DNA of 64,000 bases from Bacteroidales bacterium (GTDB taxonomy: Bacteria; Bacteroidota; Bacteroidia; Bacteroidales; GCA-2748055), in contig JAOZUK010000009.1 of the NCBI GenBank assembly GCA_029938715.1, positions 3,504 to 67,503 on the forward strand, in the 5' to 3' direction. The position numbers and the translations under genes are program-made. Shown here one piece after another: positions 55,892-62,499 of this stretch (position 1 is its first letter; every line of letters starts with the position of its first letter). The notes under the pieces are model-generated. The model was given only the letters and a program-made list of their open reading frames with translations, had not been told where the DNA came from and searched no databases.

Positions 55892-56524
55892 ATGATACTC
55901 ATGAAGACAGTTATTTATACCAGGGTAAGTAGCCAAAGTCAGGATAATCAGAGACAGATTTTAAACCTCAAGAGAATTGCGGATGAGAAAAACTGGAAGA
56001 TGAAACGCACTTTCCAAGAGAAGGTTTCTGGAACAACCAGAGCAAATTCAAGATCTGAGTTTTATAAAATGATTCAATACATCGAAAACAACAGTATTGA
56101 TTTAGTATTGATAAGCGAGGTTTCAAGAATTGGCAGGCGGGTACTTGATGTCCTCAATAGCGTTGAACTACTACACAAAAAACATACAGGTATATTCATT
56201 CAACAGTTCAACATTATCACCTTCCAGGATGGTAAAGAGGACCCAATCGCCAAAATGCTACTACAAATGCTCAGCATCGGTGCGGAAATGGAGAATAGTA
56301 TGCGAAAAAATAGGCAGTTGGAAGGGATTCAGCTGGCAAAACTTAATCAGAAATATAAAGGTCGGCAAAAGGGAGCAAAGGCAACTCCATCTAATCTATT
56401 GGAAAAGTATTCTGATGTTTACGATTTGATAAAGAAAAGTGACCTGTCATTAAGAAGGATTGCACAAATCACAGAACATAGTATTAACACTGTTAGGAAG
56501 ATCAGGAATATAGCTTCTCTATAG
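55892..56524 (+). CDS. Small serine recombinase (resolvase/invertase family)
   Basis: VIYTRVSSQSQDNQRQ catalytic-serine motif, LVLISEVSRIGRR, and a C-terminal HTH (LSLRRIAQITEHSINTVRKI). Confidence 0.85.
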   Translation: MILMKTVIYTRVSSQSQDNQRQILNLKRIADEKNWKMKRTFQEKVSGTTRANSRSEFYKMIQYIENNSIDLVLISEVSRIGRRVLDVLNSVELLHKKHTGIFIQQFNIITFQDGKEDPIAKMLLQMLSIGAEMENSMRKNRQLEGIQLAKLNQKYKGRQKGAKATPSNLLEKYSDVYDLIKKSDLSLRRIAQITEHSINTVRKIRNIASL

Positions 56525-56548: not shown

Positions 56549-57433
56549 TTATTTAATTATAATTTTGGTTCTTGATTTCTGAACTTCTCCAAAAGGAAAC
56601 ATTAGGACAAATGCATTCCAGGTATTATAAAAAAAGTGATATTCAAATACACATTGATCATCCCCATTAAGGTTCATCTGAAATGAACCATCTTTTCGAT
56701 GGTTCGTGTTACTTAAGTAATCCTGAACAAATGGCCAAGTGGCATTCAAAGTTCTATCCCAATAGATTCTCCCAAATGTCTCTGTAAAAGAATTAGATTG
56801 TATAAAATTCTGTGTTTGACAGTTCAGGTTTTTCAATGATACGCCTTTCAAAACCAAAAGTGCACATCTCTTTGATGAGCACTCTACAAATTTTCTCATA
56901 GTGGCATGATATGAGGCTCCAAATTTCTGTGCAAGAGCAATTGGTGTACCTATTTCAAGCGGATGCTTCTTAATCAACTCGTCAAAATACCTACCTTGGA
57001 ATAGTACCTCAGAAGCAAAATAGCTTGCCTCCAATTCGAACTCTTCTTTTGCGTCAGAGCTAAGAGAGATTTCATCATCTTCAAGGATTTCAAACATCTC
57101 TCTCTGCCATGGTAACACATCATGTCCAACCTCATGAAGTTTTATGAAATTTCTTCTTGGGGGAATCAAATTCGAATCTACATAAATGGTTTTTTTCTTA
57201 CGATCCAATATCCCATTTACCTTTTTCAGGGCATGCTTTAAAATGTCTTTAGATTTTGAAATATAGTTTTTTGGGATCCTTTCTATATATCTACTCTCAC
57301 TTATTTGTAACTCTGTGTATTTTGCAATCTTATCTGTCGGTGTAGGAAACACACCGACAGATTTACTCTGTTTAAGAATATCGTAGGCAATATCCTGTAC
57401 CTTTTCTTGTGATGTGAGAGGATTAATTGCCAT
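56549..57433 (-). CDS. ImmA/IrrE-family zinc metallopeptidase (CapP-like position)
   Basis: HEVGHDVLPW (HExxH) in a 294-aa protein. It overlaps the upstream XRE gene by 11 nt. Confidence 0.75.
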   Translation of the reverse strand: MAINPLTSQEKVQDIAYDILKQSKSVGVFPTPTDKIAKYTELQISESRYIERIPKNYISKSKDILKHALKKVNGILDRKKKTIYVDSNLIPPRRNFIKLHEVGHDVLPWQREMFEILEDDEISLSSDAKEEFELEASYFASEVLFQGRYFDELIKKHPLEIGTPIALAQKFGASYHATMRKFVECSSKRCALLVLKGVSLKNLNCQTQNFIQSNSFTETFGRIYWDRTLNATWPFVQDYLSNTNHRKDGSFQMNLNGDDQCVFEYHFFYNTWNAFVLMFPFGEVQKSRTKIIIK

Positions 57434-57782
57434 CTTTTTGGGATCGTAGGAATTTCAGGTATTTCATCAACTCTTCCTCTTCCTCTTCATTGAGATTCTC
57501 AGAAGATAAGGCAAAGCTTGTTAACGACTTTCTATTATTGTCTCCATTCTCTTTGTTTTTTACAATCCCCGCAGTTATTAATAGGGCATTAAACTCAACA
57601 TTATAAAATTCCGCCAACTTATAGAGAATGTTTACGGATGGACTCTTAATCTTATTATTTTCTAACTGACTAAGATAAGCATTTGAAATCTTCGTCAGTA
57701 ATTCAACTTGCCTAAGTGATAATTTCTTTAATTCTCGCTGGTCCTTAAGCAACTGACCTAAAGTGGGTTTCTTTGTAGCCAT
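57423..57782 (-). CDS. XRE-family HTH regulator (CapH/ImmR-like position)
   Basis: LKDQRELKKLSLRQVELLTKISNAYLSQLENNKIKSPSVNIL plus an acidic C-terminal helix. Divergent from the Ubl operon. Confidence 0.8.
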   Translation of the reverse strand: MATKKPTLGQLLKDQRELKKLSLRQVELLTKISNAYLSQLENNKIKSPSVNILYKLAEFYNVEFNALLITAGIVKNKENGDNNRKSLTSFALSSENLNEEEEEELMKYLKFLRSQKDGN

Positions 57783-57814: not shown

Positions 57815-57878
57815 AAGCAATTATGCTTGAAATAACAAACAGTGCTTAATACAAGCAACGAATAACAAGCGGTGCTTG
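57815..57878. promoter_or_regulatory. Three AAGCA/TGCTT palindromes (candidate operators) in the divergent intergenic region
   Basis: aagca-atta-tgctt (57815-57828), tgctt-aatac-aagca (57843-57857) and caagc-ggt-gcttg (57866-57878). Confidence 0.5.
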
Positions 57879-57906
57879 ATATAGTTAATGTTATTTCGTA
57901 TCTTTG
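57870..57906 (+). promoter_or_regulatory. Candidate Bacteroidota-type promoter for the small ORF and Ubl operon
   Basis: TATCTTTG (57899-57906) fits the TAnnTTTG -7 consensus. A CTTG at about the -33 position lies inside the third palindrome. Confidence 0.35.
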
Positions 57907-57941
57907 TATCGTTATCGGATTATTTACTTAAAAAATATCAA

Positions 57942-58070
57942 ATGGCGAAAGATTCAGATGGTAAGAAGTATAACCGCATCCCTGGGTATACTCGAAAGGT
58001 TGGAGGGAAGACCGTTAGTGTCAGACCTCATGTTCGTAGTAATCGAACAGATAGTAAAGGAGACAAGTGA
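57942..58070 (+). CDS. 42-aa highly basic small ORF, first gene of the Ubl operon
   Basis: MAKDSDGKKYNRIPGYTRKVGGKTVSVRPHVRSNRTDSKGDK has 12 K/R in 42 residues. The ATG is 36 nt after the candidate -7 box, and the stop is 26 nt before the Ubl ATG. The longer track ORFs 57888 and 57904 start upstream of the putative promoter. Confidence 0.35.
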   Translation: MAKDSDGKKYNRIPGYTRKVGGKTVSVRPHVRSNRTDSKGDK

Positions 58071-58096
58071 TTTATTAATTTTTACAGATTGAAAAG

Positions 58097-58387
58097 ATGA
58101 TTGAAAATTTAAACAGTAACAACAGGAAAAAGGGACAAGATAATGAGCTTGAAATCGTCATCAAGACCCCTAACGGAGACTGGACCAATACATTTTTGAA
58201 GACAACAAAAGTTGCTGAAGTTATTGCTGCAGTTATTCAGCATTTTAACTACGCAAGCAATGGTAAGTATGAGCTTCGTCTTGAGTCCGATCCAGACACA
58301 TTATTGCAGCCGGAGAGACCGCTTGTAAGTTATGGCATTATTGATGGGACGGTCTTAGTGTTCATTGACTTTGGAGCTGCTGTATGA
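58097..58387 (+). CDS. bilA: Ubiquitin-like (single beta-grasp) protein, BilA-like
   Basis: 96 aa. The alternating beta/alpha pattern (ELEIVIKTPNGDW...KVAEVIAAVIQHF...YELRL...LVSYGIIDGTVLVFIDFGAAV) fits a beta-grasp fold. Its stop overlaps the E2 start (ATGA). The fold is inferred, not computed. Confidence 0.6.
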   Translation: MIENLNSNNRKKGQDNELEIVIKTPNGDWTNTFLKTTKVAEVIAAVIQHFNYASNGKYELRLESDPDTLLQPERPLVSYGIIDGTVLVFIDFGAAV

Positions 58388-58866
58388 GTGTGCTGAAAGA
58401 AGTTTCTTTAATGAAAATCAGAAAGGAACTTAAGGATTGTATTGATTATGGAAAAAGGATAGGTTGGATTTTGTCAGACATTGATGAATCCAACCTATCT
58501 TATACCGTTCAGATGAGTTCTCCTATTGATGGCGAAGTTTATATAGTTGAAGTTATCTTTGATAATTACCCTGAGATCCCTCCACTAATAGATTTTGTTC
58601 ATTATCAAACTGGGCAGAAGAATATTCCTAATGCCTACCCTAAAAACAAGGACTCTTTTTTTCACCCGAATGGCCCATGTATATGCAATCCCTGTTCTCG
58701 CAAATCTTATAAAGAATTTGTACGTACAGGTCCTCATGGCGATTGGAAATTGATTGGATGGCAAAAGAATCCCAAAGTTGGGACACTAATAAGCATGGAT
58801 GCAATATTAAGAACAATCTATTCACGAATAAGCAATCCCGAATTTTATGAAAAGAGGATGGGTTAA
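58384..58866 (+). CDS. bilB: E2 (UBC-like) conjugating enzyme homolog, BilB-like
   Basis: 160 aa with FFHPNGPCIC, that is the HPN motif followed by a candidate catalytic Cys, as in UBC-fold E2s. N-terminal helix MKIRKELKD. Confidence 0.7.
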   Translation: MSVLKEVSLMKIRKELKDCIDYGKRIGWILSDIDESNLSYTVQMSSPIDGEVYIVEVIFDNYPEIPPLIDFVHYQTGQKNIPNAYPKNKDSFFHPNGPCICNPCSRKSYKEFVRTGPHGDWKLIGWQKNPKVGTLISMDAILRTIYSRISNPEFYEKRMG

Positions 58867-59452
58867 TAAGTCATTTCAGTACTTAAAGCTTGGAGATAGG
58901 ATTTCTCCAGCGGATAATGTCAGATATTATTTTAGCATTGAAGTATTGGAATTTACAGAGTCCGTATTAAAAGAATATGGGTCAATTGAACCCTCACATG
59001 AAGGCATTGTTCTTTGGGCAGGTAGAAAGAATGACAATAAAATCATTGTTAATTCAGCAATTGCTCCGGACACAGATTCTTCCGGCACCCATATAATCAT
59101 AAAACCGGAGTCGATGGTTAGGTTTATTACTTTTTTGTCTGATAGTAAACTTACATATGTTGGGCAGATTCACTCTCATCCAGGGAGCTGGGTTGGCCAT
59201 TCATCAGGTGATAATGATCTCTCTTGTTTCAAAAGAGAGGGATTAATATCTTTTGTTGCCCCTAACTATGGATTAGAAGGAATACTCCCTTTTAGTCAAT
59301 GTGGAGTTCACAGATATATGGATGGGAATTTCACTTTGTTGTCCAAAACTTATGTTGCAAAAAGAATGAAGATTCTTGGGATTCAAGCCAAATTATTGGA
59401 TCTGAGAAATAAAATGGATATAAGATGGAACGTGAAGAATGGTATAGACTGA
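58847..59452 (+). CDS. bilC: JAB/JAMM metalloisopeptidase, BilC-like
   Basis: HSHPGSWVGHSSGD gives an exact H-x-H-x7-S-x2-D JAMM motif, with an upstream Glu (SHEGIVLWAG). Overlaps the E2 gene by 20 nt. Confidence 0.8.
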   Translation: MKRGWVNKSFQYLKLGDRISPADNVRYYFSIEVLEFTESVLKEYGSIEPSHEGIVLWAGRKNDNKIIVNSAIAPDTDSSGTHIIIKPESMVRFITFLSDSKLTYVGQIHSHPGSWVGHSSGDNDLSCFKREGLISFVAPNYGLEGILPFSQCGVHRYMDGNFTLLSKTYVAKRMKILGIQAKLLDLRNKMDIRWNVKNGID

Positions 59453-60831
59453 GAAATGATCGGATGAATAGAGTGGATGATGTGAACCTTGCTCAATCCA
59501 CCAAAAGATCAATAGGTGTAGTAATTTCTCCAGAGCACCTTGATCACTATTCCATTCAGATTATGTCCTACATGTCGTTGAATATGCTTTCTCGGTGGTG
59601 TCCTTCCTTTACAATAGATCTACCTGATGAAAATCAATGTATCATTCCTGGATTTAGAAATAGAACACTTAAGGAAGTTGCTTTAGAGTTAGTGCAAAGA
59701 AATGATCCTTTCGGAGAATTTACTGTGAATAGCATCTTACCATCAGATTACAATATAGTACTATATATAGGTGAATGTAGTCATGCAGAAGGATCAAATA
59801 TGATCTGGATTGATGCAGAAGGATGGCTTGCAGGGTATGGTCAGAATATGTATAGTAATCTTAATAAGCGTAATAAAAATAACAAGAATCCAATTGGTCC
59901 TTCGTTCGCTGCCTGTTTAGGTGTGTCAGAAGTTTTAAAAAGGCATCTTGGTCTTCAAGTAAGTGAAAGTTTCATCCGGTGGTATTCTATTTATGATTTA
60001 CAATCGGATTCCAATCATGTTACTCTTTCTAACCCACCTATTTCAAGATTATTGGAGGTTGGAACGCTGCACCAAATAGGTTGTGGAGCAGTAGGATCCT
60101 CATTGGACTTGCTGTTCTCATTTCTCAACATCAAAGGTAACATCCATCTCATAGATTATGATAGTGTGTCTGTTCCTAATACTGCCAGTTCAATGGTATT
60201 TACGGCCAAGGATGGATTAGAAGAAATAGATAAAGTGGACAGCTGTTACAGTTTCTTAGAAAAGGTTGATGGACTTATACCTTACCCTCACAAATGCGAC
60301 TACGGTACATTTATCAAAAAGCACGATTTGTTAAATGATTATCCAGATATAGTTTTGTGTTTAGCTAACGAGAAAAACATCTGGTCAACAATCCAACATA
60401 ATTATCCACCTTTGGTTCTTCATGCCACGACTTCACCAAATTGGGGGGTGAATCTTGGAAGACATATCCCTTTTCAAGATTGGTGCATTGTTTGTCGTTT
60501 TGGTATAGATGAGTACGAAACAATTCCTGTATGCTCTCAGGCCAAGGTAGATTCTGGAGGGGAGAAGGAGGAAATTTTAGGAATATTGCCCTTTCTATCC
60601 ACAGCTGGTGCAATATTAATACTATCTGAAATTCTTAGATCAAGAATAGACGGATATTGCCTAACCAAAGATAATTTTGTGCAATTTTCATTTAAGGATA
60701 CCAATGTAGGATTTATCAAGTTAAAGTTGTCAAGAAACGAAAATTGCACTGTATGTAATAATCAGACAAAAGAGGAATATTCATTTCTTAGGAGACAAAT
60801 ATCATATAATCAAATTCATAAGGGTGAATAA
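59425..60831 (+). CDS. bilD: E1-like (ThiF/MoeB-fold) adenylating enzyme, BilD-like
   Basis: Rossmann motif IGCGAVGSSLD and two CxxC pairs (WCIVCRFG and NCTVCNNQ), typical of E1/ThiF zinc sites. Overlaps the JAB gene by 28 nt. Confidence 0.7.
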   Translation: MEREEWYRLRNDRMNRVDDVNLAQSTKRSIGVVISPEHLDHYSIQIMSYMSLNMLSRWCPSFTIDLPDENQCIIPGFRNRTLKEVALELVQRNDPFGEFTVNSILPSDYNIVLYIGECSHAEGSNMIWIDAEGWLAGYGQNMYSNLNKRNKNNKNPIGPSFAACLGVSEVLKRHLGLQVSESFIRWYSIYDLQSDSNHVTLSNPPISRLLEVGTLHQIGCGAVGSSLDLLFSFLNIKGNIHLIDYDSVSVPNTASSMVFTAKDGLEEIDKVDSCYSFLEKVDGLIPYPHKCDYGTFIKKHDLLNDYPDIVLCLANEKNIWSTIQHNYPPLVLHATTSPNWGVNLGRHIPFQDWCIVCRFGIDEYETIPVCSQAKVDSGGEKEEILGILPFLSTAGAILILSEILRSRIDGYCLTKDNFVQFSFKDTNVGFIKLKLSRNENCTVCNNQTKEEYSFLRRQISYNQIHKGE

Positions 60832-60981: not shown

Positions 60982-62499
60982 ATGGGAGATCCGGCAAAAT
61001 CTTTAATCACCGAAGAAAAACCTAAAGACTCTCTCGATATAATAAAATCAACACATACGTCTGAGATTGTAATAGCTCTTTGTGGTCAACTTGGAACTGA
61101 TTTGAAAAAAATAGAAGAATTATTGACTACTGAGCTAAAACATAAATTTAGATATGAATGCCAGACTATTAAGTTAAGCTCCTTTATTTCAAGATATACC
61201 GATAAAAAGCTTTCATCAATCATAAATTCCTATGAAAGGATTAAAGCTGGGATGGATGGTGGCAATGAATTAAGGGAAAAATATGACAATCAAATATTGG
61301 CCGAGTTTGCTATACAAAAGATTATTTCAGATCGAGTTAGCGAAGAATCTACTGAAAATCTTGAGCAAGAAAAATTCGATGACAGAAGAAAGTGTTTTAT
61401 TATTGATTCCATAAAGCATCCAGCTGAGATTAAGCTCTTAAATGAGGTTTATAGAGATTCATTTTATGTTATTGGAGTTTTTTCTCCAATAGGACTAAGA
61501 GCGAAAAATCTCGAAAAATCGTTTGGCCTAAATTCAATATCAAAGGTATATGAGCTTATCAATCGAGATACTGGTGAGGATTTATTATATGGTCAAAAAG
61601 TTGAAGAATCATTCATAAATTCAGACTATTTTATCAGAGTTAGTTCTAACGAGAAAAGAAAGCTCAAGCCTAAGATCGAAAGATTTTTAAACTTACTATT
61701 TGACATTGGTATTAATACTCCTTCTCCAAATGAGACCCCTATGTACCAGGCCACTGCAGCGGCTGCAAATTCAGCTTGTCTTTCAAGGCAGGTTGGTGCC
61801 TGTATTACTGATTCAAGTGGAGATATTCTGTCATTAGGATGGAATGATGTTCCGACTTATGGGGGAAACTTATATCCTAACTCGGATTTGGATATAGATG
61901 AACGATGTTACAATATTGGAGATTGTGAGTGCGCAAATATAAAAAAGAAAGAAAAAATTAAGAGTGATATACTCACTGAGTTAAATAACGCTGAAATTTT
62001 GAAGCCTGGTGAGCATACCTCAGTTATCAACGATATTCTTGACAGAAATGGGATCAAAAACCTTATAGAGTTTGCTCGTTCAATACATGCGGAAATGCAT
62101 GCAATAATTCTTGGTAGCCAAAAGTCTGGCAGCAAAATGGTTGGAGGAAAGCTATATTGTACTACATATCCATGTCATAACTGTGCTCGTCATATCATTG
62201 TTGCTGGAATTAGTGAAGTATATTACATCGAACCATATAAGAAAAGTTTAGGAATTGAATTGCATGCAGATGCTATTACAGAAGATGAAAATGAAAATAA
62301 TAAGGTGAGAATTTTAATGTATGAAGGTGTTGCACCAAAAAAGTACATGGAGTTTTATAAATTAGTTTCTGATGATCGGAAAATAAAGGTGAAATATCAG
62401 GATTTATACACAATAAAACCAAAAAGTACGATTACCTTAAGGGCCCTTCATCAGCTCGAAGCATCGGTTTCAGAAAATCTCAAGAAGAAAGGCTTGTGA
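60982..62499 (+). CDS. Two-domain protein: degenerate P-loop kinase-like N-domain plus dCMP/cytidine-deaminase zinc domain (anti-phage dCTP-deaminase / AvcD-like architecture)
   Basis: C-terminal CDA motifs SIHAEMHAI (H-A-E) and YPCHNCARHI (P-C-x2-C). The N-terminal ~230 aa carry a Walker-A-like remnant, VIALCGQLGTDLK. The total of 505 aa matches the described fusion. Confidence 0.7.
   Translation: MGDPAKSLITEEKPKDSLDIIKSTHTSEIVIALCGQLGTDLKKIEELLTTELKHKFRYECQTIKLSSFISRYTDKKLSSIINSYERIKAGMDGGNELREKYDNQILAEFAIQKIISDRVSEESTENLEQEKFDDRRKCFIIDSIKHPAEIKLLNEVYRDSFYVIGVFSPIGLRAKNLEKSFGLNSISKVYELINRDTGEDLLYGQKVEESFINSDYFIRVSSNEKRKLKPKIERFLNLLFDIGINTPSPNETPMYQATAAAANSACLSRQVGACITDSSGDILSLGWNDVPTYGGNLYPNSDLDIDERCYNIGDCECANIKKKEKIKSDILTELNNAEILKPGEHTSVINDILDRNGIKNLIEFARSIHAEMHAIILGSQKSGSKMVGGKLYCTTYPCHNCARHIIVAGISEVYYIEPYKKSLGIELHADAITEDENENNKVRILMYEGVAPKKYMEFYKLVSDDRKIKVKYQDLYTIKPKSTITLRALHQLEASVSENLKKKGL

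Follow-up and report, generated by a model that had tools for sequence, protein, structure and literature searches.

S, a 42-codon gene lying directly upstream of a bilABCD operon in Bacteroidales DNA, is best explained overall as a portable, cargo-independent mini-gene that sits behind damage-switched promoters and would encode a binder acting in trans, a reading to which we give a probability of about one half. The operon lies in a 64,000-nucleotide stretch of DNA, analysed as a whole and referred to here as the window; S is our name for the basic ORF ahead of it. The S product has a mass of 4.7 kDa, a pI of 10.5 and a net charge of about +7.6, and contains 7 Lys, 5 Arg, 4 Asp and 0 Glu. The ORF and its translation are identical to those in an earlier note on this DNA, and the seven lysines counted there, the 36 nt placed between a TAnnTTTG-type box and the S ATG, and the 26 nt placed between S and the ATG of the Ubl gene (bilA) were all recovered in our analysis.

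S sits inside the 314-bp divergent region that separates capH/capP from bilABCD (Table 1). Its ATG lies downstream of a putative −7 box, and the leader that follows the promoter-like site is A-rich and has no Shine-Dalgarno sequence (SD). Neither a terminator-like site nor a hairpin was found in the spacer between S and bilA. Because this spacer is only 26 nt long and no terminator was found in it, S is very probably gene 1 of the Bil transcript in the window and co-transcribed with bilABCD, in agreement with the earlier note. The cargo behind S in the window has the canonical order bilA-bilB-bilC-bilD. On the other side of S, the operator motif TGCTTGAnATAACAAnC is common to the window and L036, the locus with the closest CapH/CapP.

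Table 1. Coordinates of S and of the features around it in the window.
Feature	Position	Strand	Description
S (small-protein gene)	57942-58070	+	ATG at 57942, TGA ends at 58070; 42 aa
Promoter-like site	57876-57906	+	TTGATA, 17 nt, TATCTT; overlaps Bacteroidota-type −7 box TAtcTTTG (57899-57906); consensus match only
Candidate CapH operators	57823-57881		Two 21-nt direct repeats (57831-57851 and 57861-57881; 86% identical) and GCTTG/CAAGC half-site palindromes
capH, XRE-type HTH repressor	57423-57782	−	HTH_3 E 2e-12; PADLOC capH E 1.6e-11; divergent from S
capP, M78 (IrrE/ImmA-type) metallopeptidase	56549-57433	−	Peptidase_M78 E 1.4e-9; PADLOC capP E 8e-19
bilA, bilB, bilC, bilD	58097-58387, 58384-58866, 58847-59452, 59425-60831	+	BilB, BilC and BilD models; Prok-JAB, ThiF; frames overlap or abut

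A longer in-frame ORF of 60 aa starts at ATG 57888 and is the version chosen by gene callers (P0044). We rejected this start, as homologues are conserved only from the Met of the 42-aa form and their upstream extensions are unrelated. In addition, with the putative −7 box downstream of it, ATG 57888 would be absent from the transcript. Two further observations concern the surroundings of S. The S ORF is framed exactly by the two arms of an AT-rich 15-nt inverted repeat (57929-57943 and 58070-58084; 80% complementary), which could have arisen by chance. A dCTP-deaminase-type defence gene of 505 aa (60982-62499, + strand; PADLOC dCTPase, E 1e-153) follows bilD after 150 nt, which makes the locus a small defence island. 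The window genome encodes T9SS sorting domains (Bacteroidota), and the genes near S have no SDs.

S defines a tight, previously undescribed family. A phmmer search with S against 1.84 billion representative proteins returned 42 matches, with a best E-value of 1.6e-13, and about 40 of these are small proteins, 38-119 aa in length, whose alignments cover residues 1-42 at 52-79% identity. The N-terminal extensions of these homologues are mutually unrelated, and all converge on MAKD... at M1. Among the remaining matches, P0009 and P0043 are long repeat proteins in which inspection revealed no true likeness to S, the long match P0002 is suspected to be a repeat protein of the same sort, and the match to P0095 is a clustering artefact.

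To survey the family, we used a peptide-pattern scan of metagenomes, which yielded 208 S-encoding loci, and kept the best 80 of these by tblastn. The contexts of S described below are accordingly drawn from metagenome and plasmid loci; gene calls in the 80 loci are simple ORF calls, and neighbour families are named from one representative each. In all 80 loci the ORF starts with ATG, and in 79 it stops after 40-48 codons, the exception (L093) running off the end of its contig. Codon-position entropy over the 80 loci is 0.53/0.44/1.33, with third positions near saturation; pS is 0.80 versus a pN of 0.19, the median dN/dS is 0.13, and 19 of the 42 positions are at least 90% conserved. The family consensus reads MAKDSxGRKFNRIPxYTRKVxGKTIxVKxHVRSNRxDSKGKx. 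Since the phmmer E-values and this strong coding signature are far beyond chance, S is almost certainly a real protein-coding gene. The description of the ORF as unannotated in the earlier note was borne out: S is a real gene that is either unannotated or labelled 'hypothetical'.

We regard it as established with little room for doubt that S is neither Bil-specific nor part of the Bil machinery. Among the best 80 of the 208 loci, Bil lies behind S in only one (L020) and the other 79 have different cargo. In L020, S is 82% identical to the window S, whereas the Bil proteins are only 41-62% identical. Four related Bil loci were examined, and S is present in two of them, the window and L020. The Bil operon of L013 (from G370) matches that of L020 in closeness to the window and has no S despite a sigma/M78 module, with 128 bp between its regulator and bilA; the more distant Bil operon of L014 (from G319) likewise has none. 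The conservation upstream of homologous Ubl operons that the earlier note had proposed to look for is seen in L020 and not in L013 and L014. No PADLOC or Pfam match relates S to BilA, BilB, BilC or BilD, and S occurs without Ubl machinery, namely on hicAB plasmids, in relaxase contexts and with type I/III CBASS. These observations speak against the proposal in the earlier note that S is a fifth Bil component. They also make a dedicated role as Ubl substrate or decoy, which that note had raised as well, unlikely, because S is found without Ubl machinery and with non-Bil cargo, and because Bil operons without S exist. The one match from an E2-based contig scan, to Planctomycetota, was spurious.

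A divergent M78 (CapP-like) peptidase gene lies within 2.6 kb in 36 of the 63 S loci with enough upstream sequence (57%) and is not nearby in the other 27, and an ECF-sigma-like gene is present in 33 of the 63. The HTH-plus-M78 arrangement of the window recurs in a few S loci (L023, L034, L036, L051 and L068), the sigma type being commoner. The sigma-like genes encode proteins of about 220 aa that form three unrelated clusters, and their joint profile matches SigW and SigH (E 1e-6). Between the ECF-like sigma and M78 genes of most S loci there is a further gene of 100-140 aa (clusters c2/c12/c13; e.g. L013:2620-4543, − strand). Searches with it gave no HTH, Pfam or PDB match, and it may encode a cleavable anti-sigma factor that replaces CapH.

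The cargo behind S is highly varied. It includes CBASS cyclases (types I, II and III) with phospholipase, HORMA/TRIP13/NUDIX, Cap15-like or E2 genes; Pycsar; PDC-M36A; MBL with E1-E2/JAB; Multiubiquitin with E1; Bub; an uncharacterised 415-aa protein; and TnsA-like, GIY-YIG and trypsin-like genes. No same-strand gene lies downstream of S in 9 of 58 loci. On plasmid pA2BH1 of Chryseobacterium sp. ANT_H2B, genes for a recombinase, an ImmA/IrrE protein, a hypothetical protein and a sigma-70 family sigma factor are followed by S (annotated 'hypothetical protein') and then by Pycsar; the genes of the window are arranged alike, a resolvase gene lying at the M78 end. This arrangement suggests that regulator, S and cargo move as a recombinase-linked cassette. 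A serine recombinase or resolvase gene at the M78 end of the regulator module was observed in the window (55892-56524, + strand), in L023 and in L095:3471-4019 (Chryseobacterium plasmid).

As a candidate third component of the CapH/CapP module, S accompanies M78 in the 36 loci, in the window and in pA2BH1, but not in the 27 others, and it is missing from the sigma/M78-regulated Bil operon of L013. Because 27 of 63 loci have no M78 gene nearby and the sigma/M78-Bil locus L013 has no S, S appears dispensable for regulator and cargo.

S also occurs outside defence operons. It is found behind a Mob_Pre relaxase gene in mobilisable elements, behind an excisionase-like HTH gene and behind an AAA_21/MBL system. 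Behind BubE (DUF6527) in Bub operons, S continues the BubE reading frame; the resulting 170-aa forms were found on 168 contigs, and M1 is replaced by Ile in one lineage. In Enterobacterales, we observed, as the unannotated third gene in the order hicA-hicB-S, a 43-aa homologue with 56-58% identity to the window S, at L096:474-1360 (Serratia marcescens NZ_OW849495.1) and L097:3270-3838 (Enterobacter cloacae OW849305.1). These copies have an SD and a canonical intrinsic terminator and lie on 3.7-4.5-kb plasmids of clinical-isolate Serratia and Enterobacter. In genome collections S is rare: it was not found in the genomes of about 60 relatives, 400 genomes of the class contained one distant relative of 39 aa adjoining an IS, and the phage collections IMG/VR and INPHARED contained none. 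A DNA search of E. coli genomes, which is a weak test, gave zero matches. Judged from its sequence contexts, S is a self-contained, portable mini-gene that recurs behind stress-switched promoters and on mobile DNA. Furthermore, the loci without a downstream gene, the hicA-hicB-S plasmids and the BubE-S read-through suggest that S functions as a protein and does so without dependence on cargo.

The AlphaFold2 model of S, built from a 74-row alignment, has four short beta-strands and a mean pLDDT of 79, a moderate confidence for a 42-mer. Profile searches of Pfam, NCBIfam and PADLOC with S gave zero matches, and fold and structure searches (Foldseek, VIA-align, PDB profile search and ESM Atlas) gave nothing usable. 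The sole PHROGs match is phrog_21154, to which no function is assigned (E 6e-4 for S, 2e-5 for a relative), and the sole PDB profile match, the insect metalloprotease inhibitor IMPI, has an E-value of about 1 and was treated as chance. The Bil, Bub and CapH/CapP papers that we searched do not describe a conserved small ORF between promoter and cargo.

At the level of sequence, S has diverged much less than any gene beside it, and this holds even between Bacteroidota and Enterobacterales. In particular, S is about 77% identical versus about 38% for the M78 peptidase in the same locus pairs, and clear tracking of S identity with regulator type (0.80 versus 0.76) or cargo type (0.83 versus 0.75) was not seen. 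Because S stays constant while regulators, cargo and host phylum change, it most likely contacts something universal, and nucleic acid is the foremost candidate for this target in view of the charge and the predicted beta-sheet of S. Searches of Pfam, NCBIfam, PDB and fold databases gave no fold or family match that backs nucleic-acid binding.

These features can be combined into a tentative scheme. DNA damage or ssDNA would activate CapP, CapH would be cleaved and the S-bilABCD transcript would be made, as the published CapH/CapP mechanism implies. S would be translated as the first cistron and made together with Bil, and would act in trans as a small basic binder of a universal host ligand. 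The favoured ligand would be nucleic acid, i.e. either ssDNA, which is the signal sensed by CapP according to the literature on the CapH/CapP mechanism, or RNA or the ribosome. S would then tune or reset the induced response, rather than being a substrate or partner of a particular cargo. The more specific claim in this scheme, that S binds nucleic acid or a host machine in trans, is put forward tentatively, at slightly less than even odds. Of the roles listed in the earlier note, 'regulator' and 'nucleic-acid-binding factor' are those that we would prefer.

Several cis features surround S in related loci and do not occur in the window. An extended SD, (A)GAAAGGAGGTGT, lies upstream of 31 of 81 S genes (L015-L094; e.g. 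L030:5717-5742 and L052:5975-6000). It pairs perfectly over 12-13 nt with the Bacteroidia 16S tail, at −15 to −22 kcal/mol, and a pairing of −13 kcal/mol or stronger is found for those 31 of 81 S genes versus 6 of 462 neighbouring genes. No 16S gene was found in the window's own assembly, and we therefore took the tail, ...ACACCUCCUUUCU, from congeners of the window genome. Against this congener tail, the SD-antiSD energy of the window S is −3.1 kcal/mol, so that it has no extended SD; the rpsU gene of the window genome has no SD either. Chryseobacterium has an alternative anti-SD, and we examined whether the S leader of pA2BH1 had changed with it; this leader proved to be devoid of any SD.

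Structured RNA elements are predicted on both sides of S in relatives. Directly upstream of S, we observed a two-hairpin leader at L019:959-1036, L037:1951-2028, L089:5040-5117 and in their relatives. The sequence of its first loop is CCUGAAACAUG, and compensatory changes are seen at 6 of 10 pairs. Where S belongs to a Bub operon, the reading frame of BubE continues across this leader and into S, while in other loci the frame is different; as the same nucleotides are kept in different frames, the leader is conserved at the RNA or DNA level. Downstream, strong 12-15-bp hairpins lie 1-32 nt after the S stop and ahead of the cargo in many loci. An H-type pseudoknot was observed 0-18 nt after the S stop in about 15 loci (e.g. 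L046:6128-6156, L053:1480-1507 and L051:6145-6175). Its stem 1 is GAGC/GCTC and its stem 2 is CTCCA/TGGAG, with compensatory variants in both stems (AAGC/GCTT, GGCG/CGCC, ATCCA/TGGAT and CTCCT/AGGAG). An Rfam search gave zero matches for these structures. A ribosome at the S stop that overlaps a terminator was considered and rejected, as the spacing of 1-32 nt does not fit.

The slot between S and cargo can also be occupied by other small ORFs. In at least 17 loci there is a second small ORF of 43-72 aa, mostly about 50 aa, with an N-terminal CxKxxC motif and a C-terminal TM helix (e.g. L046:6181-6336, L054:6181-6336 and L036:6197-6346), and in L017, L018, L032, L033 and L035 the same slot contains a 46-aa zinc-ribbon ORF. 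Neither is present in the window.

The hairpins, the pseudoknot and the extreme SDs imply that part of the role of S could be cis-regulatory. In its strongest form, this would make S mainly a leader ORF whose translation gates read-through of the downstream hairpins or pseudoknot and thereby sets the cargo level, the peptide itself mattering little. The strong hairpins in many loci, the compensatory changes in the pseudoknot and the enrichment of strong SD-antiSD pairing over neighbouring genes all argue for such a device. However, purifying selection spans residues 1-40, the stop shifts by 0-8 codons relative to the conserved core, the spacing from stop to hairpin is also variable, S can be the last gene ahead of a terminator or a convergent gene, and the window S lacks both an SD and a hairpin and has a spacer of only 26 nt. 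We thus consider a mainly cis-acting S improbable. A better alternative, though still an unlikely one, is that S is a mobile-element fitness gene unrelated to its defence neighbour (serving anti-defence, SOS or ssDNA masking during transfer, or plasmid maintenance) that has settled in promoter-proximal slots. In keeping with this, S is found on small plasmids, mobilisable elements and integrase-flanked cassettes, serine recombinase genes lie by the regulator module in the window, L023 and pA2BH1, S often has its own leader and its own hairpin, as a mini-cassette would, and it is sparse in genomes (one distant match in 400 genomes of the class, none in about 60 relatives). On the other hand, the promoter-S-cargo position recurs over three unrelated sigma families as well as the HTH type, and the phage collections are devoid of S copies.

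The two remaining alternatives assign S a specific protein partner. The target of S could be the M78 peptidase (CapP/ImmA type), which S would serve as inhibitor, pseudo-substrate or co-factor, thereby exerting feedback on cleavage of the repressor or anti-sigma factor. S does occur with M78 in 57% of loci, whether the partner is HTH or sigma, it would be the first protein made after de-repression, and its sole, non-significant PDB profile match is a metalloprotease inhibitor. Yet the far lower identity of the peptidases over the same locus pairs comes with no sign of co-variation, S is present on 3.7-kb hicAB plasmids and next to relaxase genes where M78 is not nearby, and it has no F-R cleavage context of the kind reported for E. 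coli CapH, so that we judge this role to be quite improbable. More doubtful still is the idea from the earlier note that the lysine-rich S serves Ubl conjugation as substrate or decoy, here widened to include an adaptor role, which we hold to be very unlikely. Its seven Lys residues fit this idea, as does its recurrence by Bil (window and L020), Bub (the BubE fusion), Multiubiquitin and E2-bearing CBASS or Pycsar. That association can, however, be explained by CapH/CapP itself, which is frequent at Ubl operons (15% of Bil operons, Chambers et al., PMC10557695; 31% of Bub operons). Moreover, S also accompanies type I/III CBASS, PDC-M36A, TnsA-like, GIY-YIG and trypsin-like genes, hicAB and relaxases, and is not present in two related Bil operons.

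The reading that we prefer, that of a portable trans-acting binder, has implications beyond this locus. CapH/CapP and related damage-sensing switches govern hundreds of toxic anti-phage operons, and the pattern of S, with about 77% identity whatever the cargo or regulator and with copies on tiny enterobacterial plasmids, points to an undescribed common player in immunity switching. In the copies of S with an extended SD, the 'specialised' bS21-free ribosomes of Bacteroidia would have a second natural client besides rpsU. For annotation, gene callers miss S or start it at the wrong codon; for experiments, S is short enough for chemical synthesis, so binding and cleavage assays would be simple. 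A bolder extension, to which we assign a low likelihood, is that S is a trans-acting gate common to many abortive-infection cassettes, in many lineages translated only by bS21-free ribosomes with an exposed anti-SD, that binds ssDNA or RNA and couples damage signalling or ribosome state to the switching or reset of CapP-controlled operons. If this were true, S would constitute, together with the small membrane ORF and the novel pseudoknot, a new universal accessory layer of defence-island regulation.

Compared with known systems, S resembles the small nucleic-acid binders Sso7d/Cren7, CsrA and Csp in being small, basic and predicted to be all-beta, and differs from them in having no fold or sequence match. 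It resembles leader peptides and attenuators as a short, promoter-proximal ORF that often has RNA structure behind it. Unlike a leader peptide, however, the whole S peptide is under purifying selection and is also found without cargo; in the window, no terminator or alternative structure precedes bilA, and the peptide is far from freely varying, given its dN/dS and its strongly conserved positions.

A closer parallel is rpsU (bS21), which has an extended Shine-Dalgarno sequence in SD-blind Bacteroidia (McNutt et al. 2023, PMC9976891); in Flavobacteriales, such SDs had been regarded as practically confined to rpsU and as recognised by ribosomes that lack bS21. S is likewise small and basic, and 31 of 81 S genes have an extended SD while their neighbours have none; by contrast, S has no sequence similarity to bS21, and the window S has no SD. 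With the BilABCD operon (Chambers et al., PMC10557695) the window shares the canonical bilA-B-C-D order and a divergent capH/capP upstream, whereas S fits no Bil model and has non-Bil cargo in 79 of 80 loci. The nearest relatives of the S loci are the CapH/CapP-regulated immune operons, of which a sigma-factor variant was reported in 24 CBASS systems (Lau et al. 2022, bioRxiv 10.1101/2022.04.27.489752). Both have a divergent HTH repressor and M78 peptidase that share a promoter region with the defence cargo, and in both this cargo ranges over CBASS, Bil, Bub and other systems; the version with sigma, partner and M78 is seen in many S loci. Unlike in those operons, S is an additional gene, and one that also occurs away from CapP modules.
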